From Clostridia bacterium (GTDB lineage: Bacteria; Bacillota; Sulfobacillia; RBS10-35; JAJYVM01): 41,411 nucleotides of DNA. Below the pieces are notes generated by a model. It was not told where the DNA came from. It worked only from the letters and a program-made list of their open reading frames with translations, and did not search any database. Of this stretch, positions 12 to 37,707 are shown piece after piece (within the stretch, counting starts at the first letter, position 1; each line of letters begins with the position of its first letter). The stretch lies in the NCBI GenBank assembly GCA_027314765.1, contig DAHVAF010000260.1:1-41411 (forward strand), read 5' to 3'. Position numbers and translations under genes: made by a program.

Positions 12-158
12 GGAAGTAGGCCAGCCCGGCGCGGCTCCACGGGGAACGGCGGCGCGACCACGCGGAGCCCGCCATGCGCCATCAGCACTCACACTGCGCG
101 TCGCCGGAGGATGCCGCGTCCGCGGCGGTGGAAGTAGGCCAGCCCGGCGCGGGTCCAC
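12..158. repeat. Direct repeat, two copies about 29 bp long and 118 bp apart
   Basis: GGAAGTAGGCCAGCCCGGCGCGG at 12-34 and 130-152, each followed by (C/G)TCCAC. Confidence 0.75.
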
Positions 159-274
159 GAGCGGCGGGGAGGCGGAGATCCCTACCATTGCCGCTCGCAT
201 GCGCGCGGGGCAGACCCGCGCGCACCATCCCGGGGGAAGGAGGCCCCGGCCGCCTGCGCGAAGGCTCCACTGCC

Positions 275-1142
275 ATGCACGGGCAACCATTCCCCAAGTT
301 GGGCTCGCAGGGCGCCATTGGCGCCATTGGCGCCTTGCGCCTGAGCAGCCGCATCCTGATGGGGAGCATGCACCTGGGCCGCGAGGGCCCCGGGGCCCTC
401 GCGGCTCCCCTCAGCCGGTTCTACGAGGAGCGGGTCCACGGCGGAGCCGCGATGATCATCACGGGTGGCGTCGCGGTTTCCCGCGAGGGCGGCGGCGACC
501 ACTACTTCGTCATCACGGCGGCGGAGCAGCGCCGGATCCTGGGTGGAGTTGTCGCGTCGGTCCACGCCGCCGGCGGCAGGATCGCCATGCAGCTCTTCCA
601 TGCCGGCCGCTACACGCGCGCGTCCGAGACCGGGCTCCAGCCTGTCTCGGCGTCTGCCGTGCCTTCCCCGATCTTTCCGGATGCGCCACGGGCCCTCAGC
701 GCCGATGAGGTGGCAGCAGTCGTCCAAGCGTTCGCCCAGGCGGGCCGCTGGGCGGCCGAGCTCGGCTTCGACGCCGTGGAGGTGATGGGAATGGCGTGAC
801 GTGGCGCCGCCGGCGCGGCGCCCCGTCACCCTTCTCCGGAGAGGCGCCCGCGTCGGCGAGCGCCTGGGCCGCACCACGTGCTGGGCCCTGATGGCGGCGC
901 TGCGGCGGCGGGGCGTGGCCATGCGTACGGGGGTGGCCTGCGTGGCGATCGAGCCGGAGGGGGTGCGCCTCGCCGGCGGCGAGCTGATCCCGGCCGACAC
1001 CGTCGTCTTGGCCTGCGGCCAGGAGCCCGTGGCCCCGTACGACGGGCACCTCATCGGCGGCGCGCGCACGCCTGTCGAGCTCGACGCGCGTCGGGCCATC
1101 GAGGAGGGCGCCCGCCTCGGCGGCTCCCTCTGTGGGGGGTGA
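275..1142 (+). pseudogene. fadH: 2,4-dienoyl-CoA reductase (FadH-like), internally deleted and frameshifted
   Basis: 275-799 encodes the OYE-barrel N-terminus (RILMGSMH, QLFHAGRY, GFDAVEVMG) and stops where SEGYL is expected. A second frame from ~789-1142 encodes the FadH C-terminus (LGRTTCW, DTVVLACGQEP, HLIGG, ELDARRAI). The middle several hundred residues are absent. Confidence 0.8.
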
Positions 1143-2148
1143 TCCGGTTGAGGTCAGCAGCCCCGCGGGCGGCGTCGGCATCCTGGGACTGGGGGCCGTT
1201 CTGCCGGAGCATGCCGTCAGCCACGACGAGCTGGCCCAGCGCCTGGACACCAGCGACGAGTGGATCCGGACGCGGACCGGGATCGCCGAGCGGCGGTACG
1301 CGGCCGCTGAGGTGGCCACGTCCGATCTGGCGGTGGCCGCGGCACGCGCCGCTCTGGCCGACGCGGGCCTGACGGCCGGCCAGCTCGACTGGGTCATCTG
1401 CGCCACGACATCGCCCGACAACCCCTTCCCCGCCACGGCATCGCGCGTGCAGGCCGCGCTCGGGGCACGGCATGCCGCCGCCTTCGACCTGATGGCCTGC
1501 TGCTCCGGGTGGCTACATGGCGTGGCCCTGCTGCAGGGGCTGATCCGCGCGGGCTCCTGCCACCACGGCCTCATCGTCGGCGCCGAGGTGCTGAGCCGCA
1601 TCATCAACTGGCAGGACCGCTCGACGGCCGTCCTGGTCGGGGACGGGGCCGGGGCGGCGGTTCTCGGGCCCGTCGCGGAAGGCGCCGGCATCCTGTCCGT
1701 TCTGGCCGGATCCGACGGCGACGGCTACGAGCACATCATCATGCCGGCGGGCGGCAGCCGCATGCCCGCGACCGCCGAGACCGCGCAGGCGGGGCTCAAC
1801 GCCTTCCATATGAATGGCCGCGACGTGTTCAAGTGGGCGGTGCGCCAGGTGCCGGAGGCCGCGGAGCGGGCCCTGGAGCTGGCCGGACTCAGGGTGGGGG
1901 ACATCGATCTCTTCGTCCCCCACCAGGCCAACCTGCGCATCATCGACGCCGCCGTGGAGCGGCTGGGCATCCCGGCGGGGCGGACCTGGGTCAACATCCA
2001 GCGATACGGCAACATTTCTGCCGCGTGCATCCCGGTCGGCCTCTGCGAGGCCCGGGCGGAGGGGCGCCTGAAGGCCGGCGACCGGCTGCTGACCGTTGCG
2101 TTCGGCGGTGGCCTCACCTGGGCGGCCGCCGTGATGCACTGGATCTGA
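1132..2148 (+). CDS. fabH: 3-oxoacyl-ACP synthase III; start uncertain and possibly frameshifted near 1172
   Basis: DTSDEWIRTRTGI, AFDLMACCSG (catalytic Cys), VPHQAN (His), YGNISAA (Asn), FGGGLTW. Confidence 0.93.
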   Translation: MGGDPVEVSSPAGGVGILGLGAVLPEHAVSHDELAQRLDTSDEWIRTRTGIAERRYAAAEVATSDLAVAAARAALADAGLTAGQLDWVICATTSPDNPFPATASRVQAALGARHAAAFDLMACCSGWLHGVALLQGLIRAGSCHHGLIVGAEVLSRIINWQDRSTAVLVGDGAGAAVLGPVAEGAGILSVLAGSDGDGYEHIIMPAGGSRMPATAETAQAGLNAFHMNGRDVFKWAVRQVPEAAERALELAGLRVGDIDLFVPHQANLRIIDAAVERLGIPAGRTWVNIQRYGNISAACIPVGLCEARAEGRLKAGDRLLTVAFGGGLTWAAAVMHWI

Positions 2149-2172
2149 GATGCTCGTCTCCCGTGGTTTGCG

Positions 2173-2201
2173 TTGGCAATGACCGAGGCTTCGGCTAGAA
2201 T
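2173..2201 (+). promoter_or_regulatory. Sigma-A-type promoter for the HMGR-like/diiron operon
   Basis: TTGGCA-N17-TAGAAT, with RBS GGAGGTG at 2221-2227 before GTG 2233. Confidence 0.65.
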
Positions 2202-2232
2202 CAGTTGATGGTCCACCGGCGGAGGTGAACGC

Positions 2233-3597
2233 GTGGCGGTGGGACGCACCTGGCCCCATAAGAACGGTCCGGCCGACGTGCGGGCGCGGCGGGATACGCT
2301 CCGTAGCTTGCCCGGCTGGTCCGCCGCCGATGACTTTATCTTCGACTGGCCGGTGGAGCCGGCGCCGTTTCTGGCCATGCAGGAGTGCACGGTCGGGTAT
2401 GTGGCGCTGCCGGTGGCGGTCGTCGGCCCCATGCCGCTGGAAATGGGCCGTTACGAGACGGAGCCGGACGGCGAGCTGCGCGAGGTGGGCCGCACGGCGG
2501 ACCAGGTCTACGTGCCGCTCGCCCACACCGAGGGCAGCCTATCCATGTCGGTTCTGCGCGGCGTCAACGCCACCAGGCCGCGGGGGATCCGGACGTATGT
2601 CCTCGCCGACGGAATCACCCGCGACTGCTGCTTCGTATTTGGCGACAGCGCGCAGGCGCTGTCGCTCGCAAACTGGCTGCGCGGGCGCGAAGCCGAGATG
2701 CAGGCGTGGCTTGACCACCCCGATAACGGCTTCGGGCGGCCGTCCGGGGCCGTGGCGCCCATCAGCCGGCACGCGCGGCTGCGCCGGCTCGGGACGTTCG
2801 TCGTCGGCGCCATGTGCCACGTGCTGCTGCGGTTCACGACCGGCGACGCCTGCGGACCGAACATGATCACGCGCAACGCCTTTGCGCTCGCCCACGGGTT
2901 CATCGTGGAGCGCTTCTGCGCGCAGACCGGCATCCGGCCCCAGCGCTTCGCCCTCGAGGCGAACATGGGCGGCGACAAGAAGCCGAGCTTTCAGTACTTC
3001 CATGAGGGCCACGGCAAGACGGTGCTCGCCGAGGCCGTCATCGACGCGCCGACGCTGCGGCGGGTGCTGCGCGTGCGGCCGCACGACCTCATGGAGCTCC
3101 AGACGCTTGGGCTGCACGGCAGCCACGCGAGCGGCATGCAGTCCTTCGCGTTCACGCCCGCCTCGGCCGTGGCGGCCGTGTTCGCGGCCACCGGCCAGGA
3201 CCTCGGCATGGTGGGCACCAGCAGCATGGCGCACGGCACCGTGCAGGCCGTCGAGGTGGACGGGGTGCCGGCCGTCCATTTCAGCCTGCGGCTCTCGGGT
3301 CTGGAGGTCGGCACGATCGGGGGCGGCACGCACCTGCCGCACGTGCGGGCCTATCTGCGGATGCTGGGCTGCGACGGCGCGGGCCGGGTGCATCGCTTCG
3401 CGCAGATCATCGTGGCCACGGCGCTCTGCCTGGAGATCTCGGCCGGAGCGGCCATGGCCACAGACGATAGCCGCAACTTTTACGAGGCCCATCTCGAGCG
3501 AGGAGGATTGCGCCTGGAACAGGCGGAATCAGCCCTTTCGGGCAATGGCGGCCCCATGGCTGCACGAGCGCCGCGGGAGAGGAGGGCGAAGGTTTGA
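2233..3597 (+). CDS. Divergent class I HMG-CoA reductase-fold acyl-CoA reductase
   Basis: YVPLAHTEG (cf. PLATTEG), DGITR, TTGDACGPNM (cf. DAMGMNM), NMGGDKKPS (cis-loop), ATGQD, VGTIGGGT and a C-terminal His. Confidence 0.85.
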   Translation: MAVGRTWPHKNGPADVRARRDTLRSLPGWSAADDFIFDWPVEPAPFLAMQECTVGYVALPVAVVGPMPLEMGRYETEPDGELREVGRTADQVYVPLAHTEGSLSMSVLRGVNATRPRGIRTYVLADGITRDCCFVFGDSAQALSLANWLRGREAEMQAWLDHPDNGFGRPSGAVAPISRHARLRRLGTFVVGAMCHVLLRFTTGDACGPNMITRNAFALAHGFIVERFCAQTGIRPQRFALEANMGGDKKPSFQYFHEGHGKTVLAEAVIDAPTLRRVLRVRPHDLMELQTLGLHGSHASGMQSFAFTPASAVAAVFAATGQDLGMVGTSSMAHGTVQAVEVDGVPAVHFSLRLSGLEVGTIGGGTHLPHVRAYLRMLGCDGAGRVHRFAQIIVATALCLEISAGAAMATDDSRNFYEAHLERGGLRLEQAESALSGNGGPMAARAPRERRAKV

Positions 3598-4619
3598 TTC
3601 AGATCATGCCGAAGGTGGACCGGCAGGACCTCTTCATCCGGCTGTTTCACAAGGCGGTCGGCAGCCAGTGGTCGTCAGACGACGTCGACTGGGAGGCGCC
3701 GCTCGGGCTGGAGCCGCGCCAGGCCGTCGCCCTGACCCGCGTGCTGACGCCAGTGTACCTCGGTGAGCAGACGGCGATGCTGGGTGCATCGGCCGCGCTG
3801 CCCCAGCTGGCGGCCGCCGGGCAGACCTCGGCCCAGCTTTACCTAGCGACCTTTCTGATGGACGAGGCGCGCCATTTCGAGGCGCTGACGCAGCTGTACC
3901 AGCGGCTGAACCACAACCCCGTCTCCATCCGCGAGGTCCCGGAGATGCTGCGCTACCACCACCGGCTGCGCCAGGGTGACCGCATCGACTGGCTCTGGGG
4001 CATCCTGATCTCCGACCTTTTCGCGCGCCAGTTCTACTTCGGCTTCGCCAAGGTCCAGCCGGCGGCGCTGTTCGGACAGATGTCGGCGAGGATCCTGGTC
4101 GACGAGTCGCGCCATCAGGCGTTTGCCCACACGTACCTGAAGCAGGCGATGCCGAGCCTGCCGCCCGAGCGGCGGCAGGGGCTGCGCGACATGCAGTCCG
4201 AGTTGCTGCGCACCATGGAGGCCATCAACCAGCGGCTGCACGACGACACCGAGGCCCTCGGCCTGGACGGCCACGCCTTCATCGGTGAGCTCATCGCCCA
4301 GATTGAGGCGCACAGCAAGAGCATCGGCCTGTATGACGACGACGCCGAGGGCGGGGGGACCGGGTCGGGCAACCATGCCGCCTGGGCCCGCCTGATCGAG
4401 CGCAAGCGCGCGATCTCGCTGCGGTCCGGGGGCCTTGTGTGGCCGCGCACCGACGCGGTGGCCCTTGACCCGGAGGAGCGGGAGGATCTCGCGCGGGGCA
4501 AGGCGTCGCGGCGGCGCTACCATTACTTCGATCTGCACGGGCTGGCGCGGGACTGCGGGCAGTGCGTGATCGCGCTGCTCTGCCGCAGCCGCGCCGTGCA
4601 GGCCGGCTGCACGATCTAG
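3594..4619 (+). CDS. Ferritin-like diiron enzyme (AurF/R2/decarbonylase-like) with C-terminal Cys-cluster extension
   Basis: QW..DDVDW, GEQTA, DEARH, ISD and DESRH carboxylate/His pattern; tail CGQCVIALLC-x8-C; TTGA overlap with the upstream gene and RBS GGAGAGGAGGG. Confidence 0.8.
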   Translation: MIQIMPKVDRQDLFIRLFHKAVGSQWSSDDVDWEAPLGLEPRQAVALTRVLTPVYLGEQTAMLGASAALPQLAAAGQTSAQLYLATFLMDEARHFEALTQLYQRLNHNPVSIREVPEMLRYHHRLRQGDRIDWLWGILISDLFARQFYFGFAKVQPAALFGQMSARILVDESRHQAFAHTYLKQAMPSLPPERRQGLRDMQSELLRTMEAINQRLHDDTEALGLDGHAFIGELIAQIEAHSKSIGLYDDDAEGGGTGSGNHAAWARLIERKRAISLRSGGLVWPRTDAVALDPEEREDLARGKASRRRYHYFDLHGLARDCGQCVIALLCRSRAVQAGCTI

Positions 4620-4637
4620 TCGCTGGGACTTGGACCC

Positions 4638-4678
4638 GACGCCAAGGGCCGCCCGCCATCGGGCGGCCCTTGGTGTTT
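4638..4678 (+). terminator. Long hairpin, probable intrinsic terminator
   Basis: GACGCCAAGGGCCGCCCG / CGGGCGGCCCTTGGTGTT with a 4-nt loop and only a short T run. Confidence 0.65.
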
Positions 4679-4934
4679 CGGCCACGGGCCGGCGCGTGCC
4701 GGCGGCGGCACCGTCCGGCCGCACGGGAGCCATGGGCTCGTGACCAAACGTCGCCATGCGGGTGGCGACCGGCGCAGGGCAGCCGCTGAGGCAATATACC
4801 TGGGCGGTGGGCGCGGCCAGGGAAGCCGTGCGCCGGCCCGGACAGGCCGCGCGCGCCCGAAGGAAATAGGGTGGGGGCATCAGAGGCCCTGCCCACGGAA
4901 GACGATACCGTGCAAGGGCGCGCGGAGGCGCCGG

Positions 4935-4943
4935 TGTTATACT
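4935..4943 (+). promoter_or_regulatory. Extended -10 promoter element for topA
   Basis: TGTTATACT (TGn-TATACT) with no clear -35. Confidence 0.5.
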
Positions 4944-4968
4944 GGCCGGCAGTGAGGTAGGGATCGTT

Positions 4969-7800
4969 CTGAGCAGAGGTTTGCTGATCGTCGAGTCGCC
5001 CGCCAAGGCCAAGACGATTGAGAAGTTTCTCGGGCGCCGCTACGCGGTGGCGGCGTCGATGGGGCATGTGCGCGACCTGCCGCGCAGCCAGCTCGGCGTC
5101 GACGCGGAGCAGGGCTTTGAGCCCCGCTACATCACCATCCGGGGCAAGGGGCCCGTGCTGGCCGAGCTGCGCGAGCGCGTGAAGAAGGCCGACCGCGTGC
5201 TGCTTGCGACCGACCCCGACCGCGAGGGCGAGGCGATCTCCTGGCATCTGTGCCAGGCGCTCGGGCTGCCGGAGGCCGGGGCGGTGCGCATCACCTTCCA
5301 CGAGATCACCAAGGAGGCCGTGCAGCGGGCGCTGGCCGCCCCGCGGCCCATCGACCACCAGCTGGTGCTGGCGCAGCAGGCGCGCCGGGTGCTGGACCGC
5401 CTCGTCGGCTACAAGCTCAGCCCGCTGCTCTGGAAGAAGGTGCGCGGCGGGCTGTCGGCCGGGCGCGTGCAGTCGGTCGCGGTGCGGCTGATCGTCGACC
5501 GCGAGCAGGAGCGGCAGGCCTTTCAGCCCGAGGAGTACTGGTCGCTGACGGCGCGGCTCAGCCCGGACGGCGACCGGCCGGCCGTGTTTCCCGCCCGCTA
5601 CCACGGGGTCGGCGGCCAGCGCGTCGAGCTGAAGAGCAAGGCACAGGTCGACGGCATCATGGCCGAGGTGGAGCGTGGAGGCCGGGTGCTGCGCGTGGCG
5701 CGCGTGGCGCGTCGTGAGCGGCGCCGCAATCCGGCGCCGCCCTTTACGACCGCCTCCCTTCAGCAGGAAGCCTCGCGGAAGCTGGGCTTCGGGGTCGCAC
5801 GCACCATGCGGGTGGCGCAGCAGCTCTACGAGGGGCTCGCGGTCGGCGGCCAGCACGTCGGCCTGGTGTCGTACATCCGCACGGACTCCGTCCGGGTGGC
5901 GGAGCAGGCGCAGGGCGAGGCGGCCGAGTACGTCAAGGGGCGGTGGGGCGAGGCGTTCGCGTTTCCGCGCCAGGGAAGCGCGCGGGCGGGGGCGCAGGAC
6001 GCGCACGAGGCCATCCGGCCGACGTCCGTCATGCGGACGCCCGAGTCGCTGGGCAGCGCGCTGTCGCGCGACCAGGCCCGGCTCTACCGGCTGATCTGGG
6101 AGCGCTTCTTGGCCAGCCAGATGGCGGCGGCGGTGTACGACACCGTGACGGCGGACGTGGTGGCGGGCGGCGCCGATGCGCCGGCGGGGGCGGTGGCGGA
6201 CGACGCCCATGTCTTCCGGGCCACGGGTTCGACCATCAAGTTCGCCGGGTTCATGACCGTGTACGTCGAGGGCCGCGACGAGCGGCCGGCGGCGGGTACG
6301 GCGGAGGCCGCGGAGGCGGAGGAAGAGGAGGAGCACGTGCTGCCGGAGCTGGTGCCGGGACAGGCCGTGCGCCTGCTGGACCTGGAGCCGCAGCAGCACT
6401 TCACCGAGCCGCCGCCGCGCTACACCGAGGCCATGCTGGTGCGGGCGCTGGAGGAGAAGGGGATCGGGCGGCCGAGCACCTACGCGCCCATCATCGAGAC
6501 CATCCAGCAGCGCGGCTACGTGGGCAAGGAGGACCGGCGGCTGATGCCGACGGAGCTCGGCGTCGTCGTCACCGAGCTTTTGAAGGAGTACTTCCCAAGC
6601 GTCGTGGACGTGGCGTTCACGGCGGAGATGGAGAGCGAGCTCGACTCCGTGGAGTCCGGGGAGCGGAACTGGCAGCGGGTCGTGGGCGACTTCTACGAGC
6701 CGTTCGCCGGTATGCTGGCGCGGGCCGAGGAGGGGATCGGCAAGGTCGAGCTGGCCGAGGACCAGGTCACCGACGAGGTCTGCGAGGTGTGCGGGCGGCC
6801 GATGGCCGTGCGCCACGGGCGGTTTGGGCCGTTCCTGGCCTGCACCGGCTATCCCGAGTGCAACCACACCAAGCCCATCCTGCAGAAGACGGGTGTGCAG
6901 TGTCCGCGCTGCGGCGGCGACCTGGTCGCGCGGCGCAGCCGGCGGGGGCGGACCTTTTACGGGTGCTCCCGGTACCCCGAGTGCGACTTCGTGGCGTGGC
7001 AGCGGCCGGTTGGCCTCTGCCCGGTCTGCGGCGACCTGATGGTGGAGCGCCGCGGGCGCGAGGGCACGCGCTGGGCGCAGTGCCTGAACGCCGCCTGCGA
7101 CCATCGCGAGGGCATCGACGGCGAATCGGTGGTCGTCCCCGTGGGCGCCACCGGCACCCACGGGGACGAGTCGGCCGGGGCGGCTGGCGCGAACGGCGCC
7201 AGCGGCGTCCGGGCAGCCGCGGGCAGCGATGGCGGGAGCCATGGCACGCGCGGGACGGCGGGGTCCAGGGGAACGACGGCAGGGACGGGGCGCAGGCCAG
7301 GTGGCGCCGGGCGGGCGAGGGCCGCGGGCGGGGCAGGGCGGTCGGCTGCAGGCGTAGCGCCTCGGCGGTCTGGCAGTGGACGGCCGGCAGGCGGGCCCGG
7401 GGCGCGCAAAGCCGGTGGCGCGGCGGCCCGGAGCGCGGGAAATGGCACCGCGAGTGGCGGGCGGGCTGGGAGGGTGGCAGCAAAGCCGGGGGCACCTGCG
7501 GCGCAACCGTCGGCCAACGGGGCGGCCAGCGGCGGAGGCGCGAGCCAGAAGCGGGCCACGGGCACTGGAGCCACCTCCGGCGGTGCGACGGCGCGGCGTA
7601 CGGCCAAGACGGGGGCCACCGGCGGGCGCGCGCGGACCGGGGCGCGGGCGGCCGCGGCCGGTTCCGGCACCAGGGGCAAGGCCGTGCGCAAGCCCGCGGC
7701 ACGGAGCCGGAGCACCAGGGCGGGAACGCGCTCGGCGATGCGGCCGGGCAGCTCCACAGGCCGGCGCCGGGCCAAGCCGGGCGACGCCCCGCAGGCATGA
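4969..7800 (+). CDS. topA: DNA topoisomerase I with Zn ribbons and a long basic low-complexity tail; start CTG 4969 or TTG 4981
   Basis: IVESPAKAKTI, ATDPDREGEAI, SAGRVQS, SYIRTDS (catalytic Tyr), GIGRPSTY and three Cys4 ribbons. Confidence 0.97.
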   Translation: MSRGLLIVESPAKAKTIEKFLGRRYAVAASMGHVRDLPRSQLGVDAEQGFEPRYITIRGKGPVLAELRERVKKADRVLLATDPDREGEAISWHLCQALGLPEAGAVRITFHEITKEAVQRALAAPRPIDHQLVLAQQARRVLDRLVGYKLSPLLWKKVRGGLSAGRVQSVAVRLIVDREQERQAFQPEEYWSLTARLSPDGDRPAVFPARYHGVGGQRVELKSKAQVDGIMAEVERGGRVLRVARVARRERRRNPAPPFTTASLQQEASRKLGFGVARTMRVAQQLYEGLAVGGQHVGLVSYIRTDSVRVAEQAQGEAAEYVKGRWGEAFAFPRQGSARAGAQDAHEAIRPTSVMRTPESLGSALSRDQARLYRLIWERFLASQMAAAVYDTVTADVVAGGADAPAGAVADDAHVFRATGSTIKFAGFMTVYVEGRDERPAAGTAEAAEAEEEEEHVLPELVPGQAVRLLDLEPQQHFTEPPPRYTEAMLVRALEEKGIGRPSTYAPIIETIQQRGYVGKEDRRLMPTELGVVVTELLKEYFPSVVDVAFTAEMESELDSVESGERNWQRVVGDFYEPFAGMLARAEEGIGKVELAEDQVTDEVCEVCGRPMAVRHGRFGPFLACTGYPECNHTKPILQKTGVQCPRCGGDLVARRSRRGRTFYGCSRYPECDFVAWQRPVGLCPVCGDLMVERRGREGTRWAQCLNAACDHREGIDGESVVVPVGATGTHGDESAGAAGANGASGVRAAAGSDGGSHGTRGTAGSRGTTAGTGRRPGGAGRARAAGGAGRSAAGVAPRRSGSGRPAGGPGARKAGGAAARSAGNGTASGGRAGRVAAKPGAPAAQPSANGAASGGGASQKRATGTGATSGGATARRTAKTGATGGRARTGARAAAAGSGTRGKAVRKPAARSRSTRAGTRSAMRPGSSTGRRRAKPGDAPQA

Positions 7801-34809: not shown

Positions 34810-35610
34810 TTGGCGGCGAGCGCCCTGTTACAGGAGCTCGGGTTCACCGAGTACGAGGCGAAGGTTTACGAGGCGCTGATCGGTCACCCGTCCTCGACGG
34901 GGTACGAGGTCGCGCGCCACAGCGGCGTGCCGCGCGCGAAGGTCTACGAGGTCCTGGAGGGTCTGCAGGCGCGGGGGATCGTGCTGACCCGGCCCGAGGA
35001 GAACCGCACGCTCTACGAGCCGCTGCCGTACGAGACCCTTCTGCAGCGGTCCCAGGACAACATGCGCCGCGTCTGCACCGAGCTGTCCGGCCAGCTGGCC
35101 GCTGCGGCCGTACGGACCGAGCCCGCCGCCTTTCTGAGCCTCAGCGGCCGCGAGCGCATCCTCACCAGCTGCCGGGACATGATCGTCGGGGCGCGTCGCC
35201 GCCTGTTCTTCTCGGGCTGGCCCACGGAGGCCCAGATCCTCGCCCCCGAGCTGCTGGCCGCCGAGCGCCGCGGGATCGGCGTATTCGCCCTGGTCTACGG
35301 GGGTACATCGCTCCCGCTGCAGCGCTGGTTCACGCACACCGTCACCACCATTCAGCAGCGCGAGGTCGAGCGGGCGGGGCGCTGGCTCGGGCTCGTCGCG
35401 GACCACGACCAGGCCCTGATCGGCCACGTGCTGGACGGCGAGCAGGCCGTCGCCATGTGGACCAAAAACCCCGTGCTGGTGCAGGTGCCCGCCGAGTGGA
35501 TCAAGCACGACATCTACATGCTGGAGTTCGGCCGCGCCCTGCGTGACCGCCTCGGCGGCTTCGTGCCTCCCCAGCGTCTGGCCGAGCTGCAGTCGATGTG
35601 GGAGGGCTGA
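34810..35610 (+). CDS. TrmB-family transcriptional regulator
   Basis: LGFTEYEAKVYEAL..TGYEVARHSGVPRAKVYEVL winged HTH and a C-terminal effector domain. Confidence 0.9.
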   Translation: MAASALLQELGFTEYEAKVYEALIGHPSSTGYEVARHSGVPRAKVYEVLEGLQARGIVLTRPEENRTLYEPLPYETLLQRSQDNMRRVCTELSGQLAAAAVRTEPAAFLSLSGRERILTSCRDMIVGARRRLFFSGWPTEAQILAPELLAAERRGIGVFALVYGGTSLPLQRWFTHTVTTIQQREVERAGRWLGLVADHDQALIGHVLDGEQAVAMWTKNPVLVQVPAEWIKHDIYMLEFGRALRDRLGGFVPPQRLAELQSMWEG

Positions 35611-36803
35611 TGCCTCCCGCAAGGCCTTCGCCAACCACGGCTTCGGGGGCGGCCAGCCCTGCGCTATCTGGCATTCGGGTGCTCGAGCTCGGCCAGCTGA
35701 TCGCCGCCCCCGTCGCCGCCCGCATCCTCGCCGACTTCGGCGCCGACGTGATCAAGGTGGAGCCGCCCGGCTCCGGAGACCCCCTGCGTACCTGGGGGGC
35801 CGGGGACGGGCTGTGGTGGCGGTACCAATCCCGCGGCAAGCGTCTGATCACGGCCGACCTGCGGCAGCAGGCCGGCCGCGACCTTGTCCGGGGACTGGTC
35901 GCCCACTGCGATGTCGTCGTGGAGAACTTCCGCACGGGTCGGCTCACGGCGTGGGGCCTCGGCGACGAGGCGCTGCGCTTGGTGCGACCCGACCTGGTGA
36001 TCGTGCACGTGTCGGGGTACGGCCAGACCGGCCCGTACCGGGACCGGCCGGGTTTCGGTAACATCGCCGAGTCCATGGGAGGGCTGCGCTACATCACGGG
36101 CGACCCCGATGGCCCCCCCATGCGCGTGGGCGTGAGCCTCGGGGACGAGATCGCCGCACTGCACGCCGTGATCGGCGTGCTTTTGGGGCTGCGCGCCCGG
36201 CCCGAAACGGTGGACGTGGCGCTGACCGAGTCCGTCTTCAGCGTCCTCGAGAACACCCTGGCGGAGTACAGGCATCTCGGCATTGTCCGGGAACGGACGG
36301 GCAATACGCTGCTCAACGCCGCGCCGTCCGGAGTGTATGAGACGGCCGACGGCCGCTGGCTGGCCATCGGCGGCAACGGCGACTCCATCTTCAGGCGCCT
36401 CTGCCACGCCATCGGGCGTGATGACCTGGGTAGCGACCCGGGTCTGGCGGACAACCGCGGCCGTATGGCGCGGGTGGATGCGCTGAACCAGGTGCTGTCC
36501 GAGTGGGTGGGTGACCATACCGTCGACGAGGCGATGGCCATACTGGCGGTTGCTGAGGTCCCCGCGGGGCCCGTCTATTCCATCGCCGACATTGCGGCCG
36601 ATCCCCAGTTCCAGGCGCGGGATATGATCGTGGATGTGGATGGCTTTTCGATGCCCGGCATCGTGCCGGCCCTGAGCTCACATCCCGGCGGCATCGGTTG
36701 GGCCGGCGCCGCCCTCGGCGCGCACAATGCGGAAGTTTATGGACAGCTCCTGGGGATCGGCCGGGACGAGCTCGCTGCGCTGGCCCGCAAGGGAGTCATC
36801 TGA
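35610..36803 (+). CDS. CoA-transferase family III (CaiB/BaiF)
   Basis: LSGIRVLELGQLIAAP, FGADVIKVEPP..GDPLR, DVVVENFR, SGYGQTGPY. Confidence 0.93.
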   Translation: MPPARPSPTTASGAASPALSGIRVLELGQLIAAPVAARILADFGADVIKVEPPGSGDPLRTWGAGDGLWWRYQSRGKRLITADLRQQAGRDLVRGLVAHCDVVVENFRTGRLTAWGLGDEALRLVRPDLVIVHVSGYGQTGPYRDRPGFGNIAESMGGLRYITGDPDGPPMRVGVSLGDEIAALHAVIGVLLGLRARPETVDVALTESVFSVLENTLAEYRHLGIVRERTGNTLLNAAPSGVYETADGRWLAIGGNGDSIFRRLCHAIGRDDLGSDPGLADNRGRMARVDALNQVLSEWVGDHTVDEAMAILAVAEVPAGPVYSIADIAADPQFQARDMIVDVDGFSMPGIVPALSSHPGGIGWAGAALGAHNAEVYGQLLGIGRDELAALARKGVI

Positions 36804-36804
36804 C

Positions 36805-37707
36805 GTGGGCATCCAGGTCCAGGAGGTCGGGCCGCGCGACGGCCTGCAGAACGACCCCGCCCGCCTCAGCGCCGCGCAGAAGGTCGCGCTGGTGGAGCGG
36901 CTGGCGGCGGCCGGCCTGCGCCGGATCGAGACCGGCAGCTTCGTGCACCCCAGGGCCGTGCCGGCCATGGCCGACAGCGAGGCCGTGTTCGCAGGCATCC
37001 ACCGGCGTCCAGGGGTCTCCTACTCGGGCCTGGCGCTGAACGGGCGCGGGGTCGAGCGCGCGCTCGCCGCCACGGTGGACGAGGTCCACCTCAGCTTCGG
37101 GATCACGGAGTCGTTCAACCAGAAGAATCAGCGCCAGAGCCCGGAGGACAACTTCCGTGCGTTCTGCGAGCTCCTGCCGAAGGTGAAGGCGGCGGGGATC
37201 CCGTGCACGCTGACCTTCTCCGTGGCGTTCGGGTGCCCGTTCGAGGGCCAGGTGGACCCCGGGCGGGTTATGTCCTTCGTCGAGCGGGCGGCCGAGGCGG
37301 GGTTCGATGAGATCGGGCTCGCCGACACCATCGGTGTCGCCGTGCCAAGCCAGGTCAGCGCGCTCTTCACGCGGGCGCGGGGGACGATCGGCACTCGCGT
37401 GCCGATCGCCGCTCACTTCCACAACACCCGCAGCACGGGCCTGGCCAACGCCTACGCCGCGCTGGAGTCCGGCGCCACCATCTTCGACGCCGCCGTCGGC
37501 GGGACGGGCGGCTGTCCCTTCGCCCCCAACGCCACGGGGAACATCGCCACCGAGGACCTCGTCTACATGCTGGACGGCATGGGCGTCGCGACGGGTATCG
37601 ACCTCGAAGCGCTGATCGAGGTCGCCCGCTGGCTGGAGGGCCAGCTCGGCCACCGCCTGGAGGGCATGGTCATGAAGGCCGGGCCGTTCCGGACCGTGCC
37701 GGCCTGA
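36805..37707 (+). CDS. HMG-CoA lyase family protein
   Basis: EVGPRDGLQN, SFVHPRAVPAMAD, LADTIG, HFHNT, GGCPFAP..TGNIATED. Confidence 0.93.
   Translation: MGIQVQEVGPRDGLQNDPARLSAAQKVALVERLAAAGLRRIETGSFVHPRAVPAMADSEAVFAGIHRRPGVSYSGLALNGRGVERALAATVDEVHLSFGITESFNQKNQRQSPEDNFRAFCELLPKVKAAGIPCTLTFSVAFGCPFEGQVDPGRVMSFVERAAEAGFDEIGLADTIGVAVPSQVSALFTRARGTIGTRVPIAAHFHNTRSTGLANAYAALESGATIFDAAVGGTGGCPFAPNATGNIATEDLVYMLDGMGVATGIDLEALIEVARWLEGQLGHRLEGMVMKAGPFRTVPA

Follow-up and report, generated by a model that had tools for sequence, protein, structure and literature searches.

What do a gene of the HMG-CoA reductase (HMGR) fold and the gene of a ferritin-like dimetal protein that overlaps it make together in the genome of a Clostridia bacterium? 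The two genes lie in a window of 41,411 nucleotides, which is the whole stretch of DNA that was analyzed, and an earlier note on this window had read them as a self-contained operon of a repurposed HMGR-fold enzyme and a diiron enzyme. The evidence gathered here points to an undescribed lipid pathway, not to isoprenoid synthesis.

The locus and its reductase

The features of the locus are listed below.

74-799 and 801-1142: 'fadH' before fabH, a remnant only, in two frames
1132-2148: fabH, directly upstream of the pair (NCBIfam, 396 bits)
2173-2201, + strand: sigma-70-type promoter-like site, TTGGCA-17 nt-TAGAAT (consensus match only, 10/12)
2233-3597, + strand: predicted FcrA-like acyl-CoA reductase of the class-I HMGR fold, 454 aa (P0001; Pfam PF00368)
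3594-3597, + strand: TTGA overlap of 4 bases between the TGA stop of the reductase and the TTG start of the oxidase (from the sequence)
3594-4619, + strand: ferritin-like dimetal-carboxylate protein, the oxidase, 341 aa with a C-terminal CxxCx5C tail (P0002; PF11583)
4638-4677, + strand: 18-bp G+C-rich hairpin after the oxidase gene, followed by GUGUUUC; a likely terminator (from folding)

The promoter-like site at 2173-2201 was the sole such site in 1900-5100, where shuffled sequences had a mean of 0.1. The reductase ORF (2233-3597) opens with a GTG preceded by GGAGGTG, and the oxidase ORF (3594-4619) opens with a TTG preceded by GGAGG, at the same residues as its homologues (MI(R/K)L.P in alignment A1). 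The GC3 of 0.90 in the reductase gene and 0.93 in the oxidase gene, compared with 0.70 overall, is as expected of real coding frames. The 76-nt stretch holding the hairpin (4615-4690) folded at -48.9 kcal/mol (z = -4.6), and none of 200 shuffles folded as well; the hairpin at 4638-4677 was not called by a strict terminator scan because its U-tract is short. Hence the promoter site, the TTGA coupling, and the terminal hairpin on which the earlier note had built its operon are all present. As for the two upstream genes that it named, fabH stands, while fadH is reduced to its remnant. This context is not conserved, as fabH was found upstream only in the window and in its closest relative (locus L008), and a functional link to fabH, holding in only these two loci, was dropped.

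The reductase matched the Pfam family HMG-CoA_red (PF00368) over profile positions 2-364 of 368 (242 bits, E 1.1e-71), and scored 169.3 bits against the HMGR equivalog TIGR00533, which has a cut-off of 441.8. In human HMGR numbering, as used in the FcrA paper (PMC11948995), the catalytic Glu559, Lys691, Asp767, and His866 correspond to E51, K249, D323, and H420, which are invariant in alignment A2 and align with the PDB enzymes and the canonical rows. The HMG-carboxylate binder Ser684 is replaced by Glu242, with Glu in 181/181 subfamily sequences, and Lys735 is replaced in all subfamily rows, here by Leu292 next to the invariant Gly293 and in relatives by other non-basic residues. Leu862, four positions before the catalytic His, is Phe416, a change shared by 181/181 sequences. 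Two further replacements are specific to the subfamily, namely His752 to Thr (T308) in 180/181 sequences and Asn755 to Ser (S311) in 181/181. Two canonical rows in the same alignment (P0359 and P0388) carry S, K, H, N, and L at those columns, which validates the column mapping.

FcrA is an HMGR-derived fatty acyl-CoA reductase assayed from Natronomonas pharaonis and 'Ca. Promineifilum breve' (ISME J 2025, PMC11948995). Its reported signature consists of Ser684 to Glu (Glu360 in N. pharaonis), the salt-bridge Lys to a non-basic residue, and Leu862 to a bulky aromatic residue (Trp528 in N. pharaonis), and it was reported to convert acyl-CoA of C14 or longer into alcohol in an NADPH-dependent manner, with no activity on HMG-CoA (PMC11948995). 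When 111 representative relatives were grouped, 89 had Glu or Asp and Phe, Trp, or Tyr at the two sites without the Thr/Ser pair, six belonged to the subfamily, two were canonical, and 14 were other. A quick tree, which was midpoint-rooted and had no named FcrA sequence among its rows, set the 10 rows of the subfamily (support 100) apart from the remaining 101 representatives by a long branch, as a clade of its own outside the main FcrA-signature group. P0001 is not a mevalonate-forming HMGR. Its residues suggest a distinct subfamily of FcrA-type reductases, for which FcrA activity would be predicted. The earlier proposal of an acyl-CoA reductase built on an HMGR scaffold thus appears right in kind, as far as the residue signature tells, but this kind was recognized and published only in 2025.

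The genome of the window, which is 87.8% complete, contains a single PF00368 gene and two ispH genes over the cut-off. Mevalonate kinase (MVK) and HMG-CoA synthase (HMGS) were not found over their cut-offs in it (best 28.5 bits against 163 and 22.7 bits against 360, respectively), diphosphomevalonate decarboxylase (MVD) gave no match, and no dxs exceeded its cut-off in the 87.8% of the genome that is covered. This survey supports the view of the HMGR-fold enzyme as a repurposed orphan. Where genomes of these taxa are annotated with 'HMG-CoA reductase (NADPH)', that name points to the wrong pathway.

Conservation of the pair and its neighboring genes

The earlier note had left the conservation of the adjacency to be checked. 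In 80 loci sampled from Bacillota, Binatia, Armatimonadota, Chloroflexota, and Actinomycetes, the two genes were paired in 60, and the pairing is conserved across several phyla and in three gene orders: 35 pairs were convergent, 17 had the oxidase before the reductase, and eight had the reductase before the oxidase. The remaining 20 loci included 13 that were unpaired with room on both sides and seven at contig ends. The self-contained operon therefore describes the window but not the general form, which is convergent in 35 of the 60 paired loci. Convergent genes imply no co-transcription in those 35 loci.

The distribution across genomes was examined in two samples. Among 121 genomes of one class (that of genome G007), 15 had both genes, always adjacent, 106 had neither, and none had only one. 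Among 301 genomes from the phylum of the window, three had a close reductase, all beside an oxidase, and one had the oxidase only. A close reductase without the oxidase never occurred among those 422 genomes (121 + 301), while the oxidase occurred without the reductase in three of five genomes tested, an asymmetry that draws on few independent lineages and on incomplete MAGs. The genome of the window also encodes an oxidase paralogue at 72%. In two genomes (G001 and G002), the oxidase gene was relocated and both genes were kept. A homologue search for longer proteins found no fused reductase-oxidase proteins, which is weak evidence. Among plasmids, tblastn recovered nothing for the oxidase and, for the reductase, a single distant match from Streptomyces (33% identity). 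No description of the pair was found in the literature.

The accessory genes of the pair are acyl-lipid genes. A lipid kinase adjoined the pair in only 15 of the 80 loci; in 14 of these 15 loci, which come from three phyla, a relative of this kinase lay just downstream of the reductase, and in locus L069 one precedes the pair. The loci with an operonic kinase belonged to Binatia, Armatimonadota, and Chloroflexota, and in the three that were read, a YegS/DAGK lipid kinase gene lay at most 15 nt from the reductase stop or overlapped it. In Binatia, the genes that come after the kinase, a methyltransferase gene and rnhB, are unrelated. Fusions of HMGR domains with kinases were present in more distant relatives, and a wax synthase in only one of five carrier genomes.

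In 13 Sulfobacillus-type loci, an MbcS-like acyl-CoA synthetase was encoded directly upstream of the oxidase. It is nearest to short/branched-chain enzymes (496 bits with the MbcS model, against a cut-off of 850) and sits uneasily with a long-chain substrate. Two other candidate links were rejected. A link to heme through hemE-hemH-hemY near the oxidase occurred only in three Binatia and six reductase-less Bacillota loci and was judged to be synteny, and the block of lysine decarboxylase, tmk, holB, and rsmI was attributed to Bacillus-type housekeeping synteny.

The oxidase and a candidate pathway

AurF (PF11583) was the sole Pfam family matched by the oxidase, marginally (31.5 bits, gathering threshold 29.6) and over residues 77-208 only. 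The residues E58, E91xxH94, D141, and E171xxH174, plus C321, C324, and C330, are invariant. With an AF2 model of the protein (pLDDT 84), VIA-align gave Z scores of 23.1 for RNR R2, 22.0 for R2lox (4hr0_A, rmsd 3.1 over 245 residues), 20.4, 18.9, and 18.8 for ADO-active proteins, 15.2 for CmlI, and 14.6 for AurF, and the best Foldseek matches were R2lox. In a profile search of the PDB, the N-terminal half matched R2lox (E 2.7e-5), while ADO chains were matched by the C-terminal half only (E 1e-3 to 0.4); phmmer with residues 120-260 gave no match in the PDB. The ADO family PF11266 had no match in P0002 at E <= 0.01. It is carried by two oxidase homologues, and some database records call such homologues 'long-chain fatty aldehyde decarbonylase'. 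The best score among the NCBIfam R2lox models was 22.6 bits, against cut-offs of 194-315. Judged by the model, the oxidase resembles RNR R2, R2lox, and ADO more closely than AurF. A radical-transfer role like that of RNR R2 was dropped, as the position that we take to be the Tyr site of class Ia R2, four residues after His94, is the invariant Leu98.

The FcrA-type reductase and the dimetal oxidase probably act in one non-isoprenoid acyl-lipid pathway. The fuller explanation, a conserved lipid-tailoring module unrelated to mevalonate, is the one that we favor, with moderate confidence. The reductase would use 2 NAD(P)H to convert an acyl-CoA thioester into a primary alcohol, with the aldehyde intermediate kept bound. 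The oxidase would belong to the R2lox/ADO structural neighborhood and activate O2 at a dimetal site (Fe/Fe or Mn/Fe). Since enzymes of that neighborhood bind a long aliphatic ligand with its polar head at the metal site, chemistry would be expected at C1-C3 of the chain. A particular order of steps with hydroxylation is offered only tentatively, and we infer the order, the hydroxylation, the chain length, and the metal identity alike. The oxidase would act first, on the part of the acyl chain close to the carboxyl group, where hydroxylation of an acyl-CoA or fatty acid is the likeliest modification; the reductase would then turn the modified acyl-CoA into a hydroxy-alcohol, that is, a long-chain diol; and in Binatia, Armatimonadota, and Chloroflexota, the operonic YegS/DAGK-type kinase may phosphorylate that alcohol. 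The oxidase-first order and the alcohol product fit better because of the asymmetry in occurrence and the operonic lipid kinase in three phyla.

A bolder extension, and a long shot, is that the pair represents the missing route to long-chain 1,2-diol or hydroxy-alkanol membrane lipids in thermophilic and acidophilic bacteria. The dimetal protein would then act as an alpha-hydroxylase of acyl-CoA or fatty acids, a new kind among ferritin-like proteins, and we know of no ferritin-like fatty-acid alpha-hydroxylase. The FcrA subfamily with the Thr/Ser pocket would turn 2-hydroxyacyl-CoA into alkane-1,2-diol, and the operonic YegS/DAGK-type kinase would form a diol phosphate to serve as the lipid backbone in place of glycerol phosphate. 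The genome paper of Thermomicrobium roseum stated that the route from fatty acids to 1,2-diols 'remains to be clarified' as of then (PMC2615216).

The strongest alternative, though an unlikely one, is a route like AAR/ADO, where the fatty aldehyde would be the end product of the reductase, or would escape from it, and the oxidase would deformylate this aldehyde to a Cn-1 alkane or alkene plus formate. The close adjacency mirrors the aar-ado gene pair, and the resemblance extends to the oxidase itself: the C-terminal half of its profile matches cyanobacterial ADO (E 1e-3 to 0.03), its model has Z scores of 18.8-20.4 to ferritin-like proteins deposited with ADO activity, and some homologues carry PF11266 or were named aldehyde decarbonylase by their source. 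Beside the reaction center, the subfamily has lost Asn755 and His752, which could also alter the second hydride step. However, P0002 itself lacks a PF11266 match at E <= 0.01, and the characterized FcrA was reported to give alcohol and not to use free aldehyde (PMC11948995). An operonic lipid kinase would have no role if the product were a hydrocarbon. Moreover, some genomes carry the oxidase with no reductase found, and the close reductase never occurs alone among the 422 genomes; a downstream ADO would predict the opposite.

A catabolic direction appears quite improbable. Here the oxidase would form a primary alcohol by hydroxylating an alkane or an alkyl terminus, and the HMGR-fold enzyme, with CoA and 2 NAD(P)+, would oxidize this alcohol directly to acyl-CoA for beta-oxidation. 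HMGR chemistry is reversible in principle, as established for the Pseudomonas mevalonii enzyme, and acyl-CoA dehydrogenase genes lie near some loci, but no beta-oxidation genes are consistently adjacent and the kinase linkage is left unexplained. One study described an R2lox as an alkane monooxygenase (PMC10867098), and a haloarchaeal R2lox was induced on hexadecane (PMC9314684); the oxidase, however, falls outside the R2lox family (best score 22.6 bits, cut-off 194), and class-I enzymes and FcrA use NADPH and run reductively (PMC11948995).

That the genes are neighbors by inherited synteny and serve separate pathways is very improbable and was already disfavored. Although 35 of the 60 pairs are convergent and the Sulfobacillus-type pair lies beside a housekeeping block (lysine decarboxylase, tmk, darA, holB, rsmI, abrB, and metG), adjacency is kept through three gene orders in at least five phyla, co-occurrence is perfect in the 121 genomes of one class, and G001 and G002 retained both genes even as the oxidase gene moved. 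A true mevalonate-forming HMGR with another downstream route is barely credible, since the Pfam HMG-CoA_red match, the intact catalytic residues, and an HMGL-like lyase gene 31 kb away in the window are set against the replacement of Ser684 in 181/181 sequences and of Lys735 in all subfamily rows, a score of 169 bits for a cut-off of 441.8, MVK, MVD, and HMGS not found in the 87.8% complete genome, and the report that enzymes of the same signature do not reduce HMG-CoA (PMC11948995).

The lipid-tailoring module is hence the reading that we prefer. To our knowledge, neither a function nor a partner has been known for the R2lox-like ferritin proteins in more than ten years. The R2lox literature suggests partner finding as a way forward (PMC9314684), and many FcrA-type reductases are described as acting outside wax-ester synthesis, in pathways yet to be identified (PMC11948995). 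A dimetal oxidase locked to a dedicated, putative FcrA subfamily in at least five phyla is a two-gene system open to direct expression and assay. It could yield bacterial fatty alcohols, diols, or hydrocarbons of a new class. Such compounds are relevant to lipid biomarkers, to oleochemical production, and to the way membranes adapt to hot and acidic habitats.

Comparison with known systems

The reductase shares with class I HMGR (EC 1.1.1.34) the fold, the NADPH motifs DAxGxN and GTxGGGT, and the catalytic tetrad. It differs in the replaced HMG-binding residues, a score below the equivalog cut-off, and a genome without a detected mevalonate pathway.

The oxidase is like AurF and CmlI in its PF11583 match (31.5 against 29.6 bits) and ferritin-like diiron fold, but it is structurally farther from them (Z 14.6-15.2, compared with 22-23 for R2 and R2lox), and the pair has no arylamine or natural-product context. 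The AAR/ADO system likewise has adjacent genes for an acyl-thioester reductase and a ferritin-like dimetal protein, and the oxidase resembles ADO weakly by profile and clearly by fold. In contrast, the fold of P0001 is unrelated to AAR and a four-electron reduction would be expected of it, and the oxidase is about 100 residues longer than ADO, has a Cys-rich tail, and occurs without the reductase.

R2lox (Geobacillus 4HR0) provided the best Foldseek and profile matches, and it shares the FxxDEAxHxE motif and a disordered C-terminal tail with the oxidase. R2lox is reported to bind C16-C18 hydroxy fatty acids, with its function unknown (PMC9314684). Unlike in R2lox, Val72 of the Tyr-Val cross-link, three residues past the first Glu ligand, corresponds to the invariant Ala61 in the oxidase (the Val column was read in the alignment to 5omj, GEEAVTL), and the Glu ligand of the third helix aligns to Arg/Lys, with an invariant Asp one turn earlier.

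The closest counterpart of P0001 is FcrA, with which it shares the class-I HMGR fold with the catalytic Glu, Lys, Asp, and His, the change of Ser684 to Glu, the loss of the HMG salt-bridge Lys, the bulky aromatic residue for Leu862, and an occurrence in genomes without the mevalonate pathway. The main text of the FcrA paper has no occurrence of ferritin or diiron, while its supplementary tree and gene lists may include the subfamily (PMC11948995). The differences are that P0001 has Phe, not Trp, at the Leu862 position and lacks an N-terminal Lad or ACP domain, and that the subfamily has Thr and Ser at 752 and 755 in place of Asn and Asn (or His and Asn), no wax synthase in four of five carrier genomes, and an obligate ferritin-like neighbor.

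Layout of the two-gene locus

The segment from 2173 to 4678 had been described as a self-contained operon of an HMGR-fold reductase gene and a ferritin-like oxidase gene, and all of its described elements were present in the sequence:

2173-2201: promoter-like site TTGGCA-17-TAGAAT, the sole such site in 1900-5100 (shuffle mean 0.1)
2233-3597, forward strand: reductase gene, GTG start, 454 aa
3594-4619, forward strand: oxidase gene, TTG start, 341 aa
4638-4677: 18-bp hairpin 3' of the oxidase gene

The two co-directional genes share the overlap TTGA, and their third-position G+C was 0.90 (reductase) and 0.93 (oxidase) versus 0.70 for the stretch, in a window with a G+C of 72%. The 76-nt stretch enclosing the hairpin folds with z = -4.6; the hairpin itself was not called by a strict terminator scan.

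The pair had also been placed after fabH and fadH. The fabH gene does lie directly 5' of the pair, whereas fadH is represented only by a fadH-like remnant in two frames, 5' of fabH. This remnant (74-1142, forward strand) matches positions 8-173 of 342 of the Oxidored_FMN profile in frame 74-799 and positions 168-240 of 291 of Pyr_redox_2 in a second frame (801-1142), far short of a full 2,4-dienoyl-CoA reductase; gene decay or an error in the assembly may account for it. On the 3' side, the pair is followed by topA, xerC, hslVU, and a long flagellar cluster, a layout that is usual in Bacillota. Farther along, at 35598-37707 (forward strand), a family III CoA-transferase (375 bits) and, after it, an HMGL-like lyase (155 bits), with a TrmB-type regulator in front of them, may form an HMG-CoA- or citramalyl-CoA-type lyase module. 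The transferase and lyase lie 31 kb away from the reductase, and no link between them and the reductase was found.

The FcrA signature and a Thr/Ser subfamily of reductases

The first gene does not encode an HMG-CoA reductase. Its product scored 242 bits against Pfam HMG-CoA_red, but the equivalog model of NCBIfam for NADPH HMG-CoA reductase, with its cut-off of 441.8, gave only 169 bits. The window's genome, 87.8% complete, contained one PF00368 gene, and searches of it found neither mevalonate kinase (best 28.5 bits versus 163) nor HMG-CoA synthase (22.7 bits versus 360), nor any gene for diphosphomevalonate decarboxylase. The proposal of a repurposed HMGR-fold enzyme was thus supported. As for the MEP route, two ispH genes were over the cut-off and no dxs gene was found over it in the same 87.8%-complete genome, so that ispH carries the case for this route by itself.

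A large bacterial and haloarchaeal clade of 'class-I HMGR' proteins was identified through expression and assay as fatty acyl-CoA reductases, FcrA (PMC11948995). FcrA uses NADPH and forms an alcohol, does not accept HMG-CoA as a substrate, and is not inhibited by statin. It retains the catalytic Glu559, Lys691, Asp767, and His866 (human HMGR numbering), while Ser684 is changed to Glu, the HMG salt-bridge Lys to a small residue, and Leu862 to a bulky residue (PMC11948995).

Judged by its aligned residues, the reductase of the window bears this signature. Its E51, K249, D323, and H420 were invariant in 24 relatives, and alignment to the solved human, plant, and archaeal enzymes placed Glu242 on Ser684 and Leu292 on the HMG Lys. 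When 117 representative relatives were aligned, the mapped columns read S, K, H, N, and L in two canonical-pattern rows and E, L, T, S, and F in the window reductase. The earlier suggestion of an acyl-CoA reductase on an HMGR scaffold therefore stands as far as the residue signature is concerned, but not as a new kind of enzyme, which was already published in 2025.

Proteins resembling the window reductase formed a distinct subfamily. All 181 members carried Glu, Phe, and, in place of Asn755, Ser; all but one (180 of 181) carried Thr in place of His752. Most other FcrA-signature proteins carried Asn/Asn at 752/755, which makes the Thr/Ser pair the mark of the subfamily. Position 684 was acidic and position 862 aromatic, without the Thr/Ser pair, in 89 of the 111 tree rows; the remainder comprised six subfamily, two canonical, and 14 other rows. 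In a quick tree, the subfamily formed a clade (support 100) that a long branch separated from the other 101 rows, none of which was a named FcrA.

Conservation of the pair and affinities of the oxidase

Across phyla, the reductase and oxidase genes are inherited together as neighbours. One genome of each species was scanned, which yielded 161 oxidase relatives, and the 80 best loci were then searched by tblastn. The reductase preceded the oxidase on the same strand, as in the window, in 8 of these best 80 loci, the two genes were convergent in 35, and the oxidase came first on the same strand in 17. The conserved adjacency sought by the earlier note was accordingly observed in 60 of the best 80 loci, in three gene orders. 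No reductase was present in 13 loci whose flanks each offered 2 kb or more, and a contig end was too near to tell in seven. According to their records, paired loci belonged to Bacillota (including Sulfobacillus isolates), Candidatus Binatia, 'Deltaproteobacteria' MAGs, Armatimonadota, Chloroflexota, and one Actinomycetes MAG. One locus recorded under a Klebsiella pneumoniae MAG (L080) has an oxidase identical to that of a 'Deltaproteobacteria' MAG (L079) and groups with Binatia; its contig is probably mis-binned or mislabelled.

In a sample of 121 genomes from the class to which one Binatia genome belongs, the same 15 carried both reductase and oxidase, in every case as neighbours, and 106 carried neither. 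Among 301 genomes of the window's phylum, a close reductase (at least 50% identity) was found in three, each time beside the oxidase, and one genome contained an oxidase without a close reductase. A close reductase without the oxidase was never seen in these two samples of 121 and 301 genomes. Five genomes with a reductase-less oxidase locus included two with the reductase elsewhere, at the old syntenic place, and three in which it was not found. The oxidase can thus stand alone, as it occurs in genomes and loci without the reductase. In the oxidase tree, unpaired copies were scattered, with at least seven changes forced by the starred branches. Of the 15 reductase matches in the Binatia class, five (G520, G529, G547, G574, and G622) contained a single in-frame TAA, TAG, or TGA, which may reflect read-through past the gene end or broken copies.

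The oxidase is a dimetal-carboxylate protein of the neighbourhood of R2lox and aldehyde-deformylating oxygenase (ADO). Its sole Pfam family was AurF, at a marginal 31.5 bits versus 29.6, and its match to NCBIfam R2lox was weak (22.6 bits versus 194). Across 17 aligned relatives, E58, E91xxH94, D141, and E171xxH174 were invariant. The AF2 model was good over residues 10-250 (mean pLDDT 84), and R2lox entries ranked at the top in Foldseek. A full VIA-align scan gave Z scores of 23.1 for RNR R2, 22.0 for R2lox, 20.4, 18.9, and 18.8 for proteins deposited with aldehyde-deformylating activity, 15.2 for CmlI, 14.6 for AurF, and 14.0 for acyl-ACP desaturase. Against the PDB, the N-terminal half of the family profile matched R2lox (E 2.7e-5) and the C-terminal half cyanobacterial ADO (E 1e-3). 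The oxidase is nevertheless not R2lox proper, because Ala61 stands at the cross-link Val position and an Arg or Lys takes the place of the third-helix Glu in the alignment, preceded by an invariant Asp at a distance of one turn. In crystal structures of R2lox and ADO, a fatty acid sits head-first at the metals, so that a reaction close to C1-C3 of a long chain may reasonably be expected. C16-C18 fatty acids co-purify with both proteins (PMC9314684).

In the 17 aligned relatives, the C-terminus consisted of a variable linker followed by an invariant CxxCx5C tail. The motif is at residues 321-331 (window 4554-4586; columns 410-430 of oxidase alignment A1), inside an amphipathic-looking helix that comes after a disordered linker. 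This tail was found in Bacillota, Armatimonadota, Chloroflexota, and the Actinomycetes locus, with or without an adjacent reductase, and was missing from Binatia and Sulfoacidibacillus-type oxidases. Metal binding, membrane contact, and partner docking are candidate roles.

The window's genome also contains a second oxidase copy of 72% identity, located 3' of aroA and overlapping a flavin-reductase gene (contig C114, L094 264-3692); it has the same Cys tail and no reductase nearby. The aroA-oxidase arrangement recurs in a sister MAG (L009). Family-2 glycosyltransferases were often near reductase-less oxidases (L016 2285-3247, L018 6481-8810, L041 7586-8563, and L056 7411-8703), and in two loci such an oxidase comes after the trehalose synthesis genes otsA-otsB.

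Accessory genes and the proposed pathway

In three loci read (L083, L062, and L078), a YegS/DAGK-type lipid kinase gene was at most 15 nt from, or overlapped, the reductase stop; the L062 kinase scored 175 bits against TIGR00147 (cut-off 118.65). Kinase relatives were located just 3' of the reductase in 14 of 15 Binatia, Armatimonadota, and Chloroflexota loci, and upstream of the pair in L069. Directly 5' of the oxidase, 13 Sulfobacillus-type loci encoded an acyl-CoA synthetase, whose nearest model was MbcS (496 bits versus a cut-off of 850), and 24 loci encoded a membrane-anchored DUF5666 protein 5' of the oxidase. A wax synthase (TIGR02946) was present in one of five carrier genomes.

More distant FcrA-signature proteins were fused to an EcKL/APH-type kinase domain. 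For example, a 918-aa protein (L098 865-3621 in genome G114; also L099 in G280) combines an HMGR domain bearing the FcrA signature (356 bits) with a C-terminal EcKL/APH/choline-kinase-like phosphotransferase domain. The reductase representatives included numerous proteins about 900 aa long, and many of them probably share this architecture. Such fusions suggest that reduction followed by phosphorylation is a widespread way of making alkyl phosphates.

We infer that the reductase and the oxidase act on one acyl chain, and they probably belong, as an FcrA-type reductase and a dimetal oxidase, to one non-isoprenoid acyl-lipid pathway. A more specific version is offered tentatively, in which the oxidase would act first, on the acyl chain, and the reductase would then convert a modified acyl-CoA, such as a 2-hydroxyacyl-CoA, into a long-chain diol or hydroxy-alcohol. 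Three points favour this order. The oxidase does occur without the specialised reductase, but the reverse was never seen; the kinases that are coupled to such reductases, or fused with them, imply that the end product is an alcohol; and the subfamily's Thr/Ser pair, which lies close to the reaction centre, suggests that the substrate has been modified. The earlier note had suggested that the pair could parallel the alkane pathway of cyanobacteria, where the reductase AAR is paired with ADO; with the resemblance of the oxidase to ADO on its side and the arguments for an oxidase-first order against it, such a hydrocarbon route is a serious rival, albeit an unlikely one. An oxidative alkane-activation route, a lesser rival, appears highly improbable.

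A literature search that included the main text of the FcrA paper found no paper on an obligate pairing of an FcrA-type reductase with a ferritin-like oxidase, nor on the Thr/Ser subfamily. The kind of reductase itself has been in the literature since 2025.
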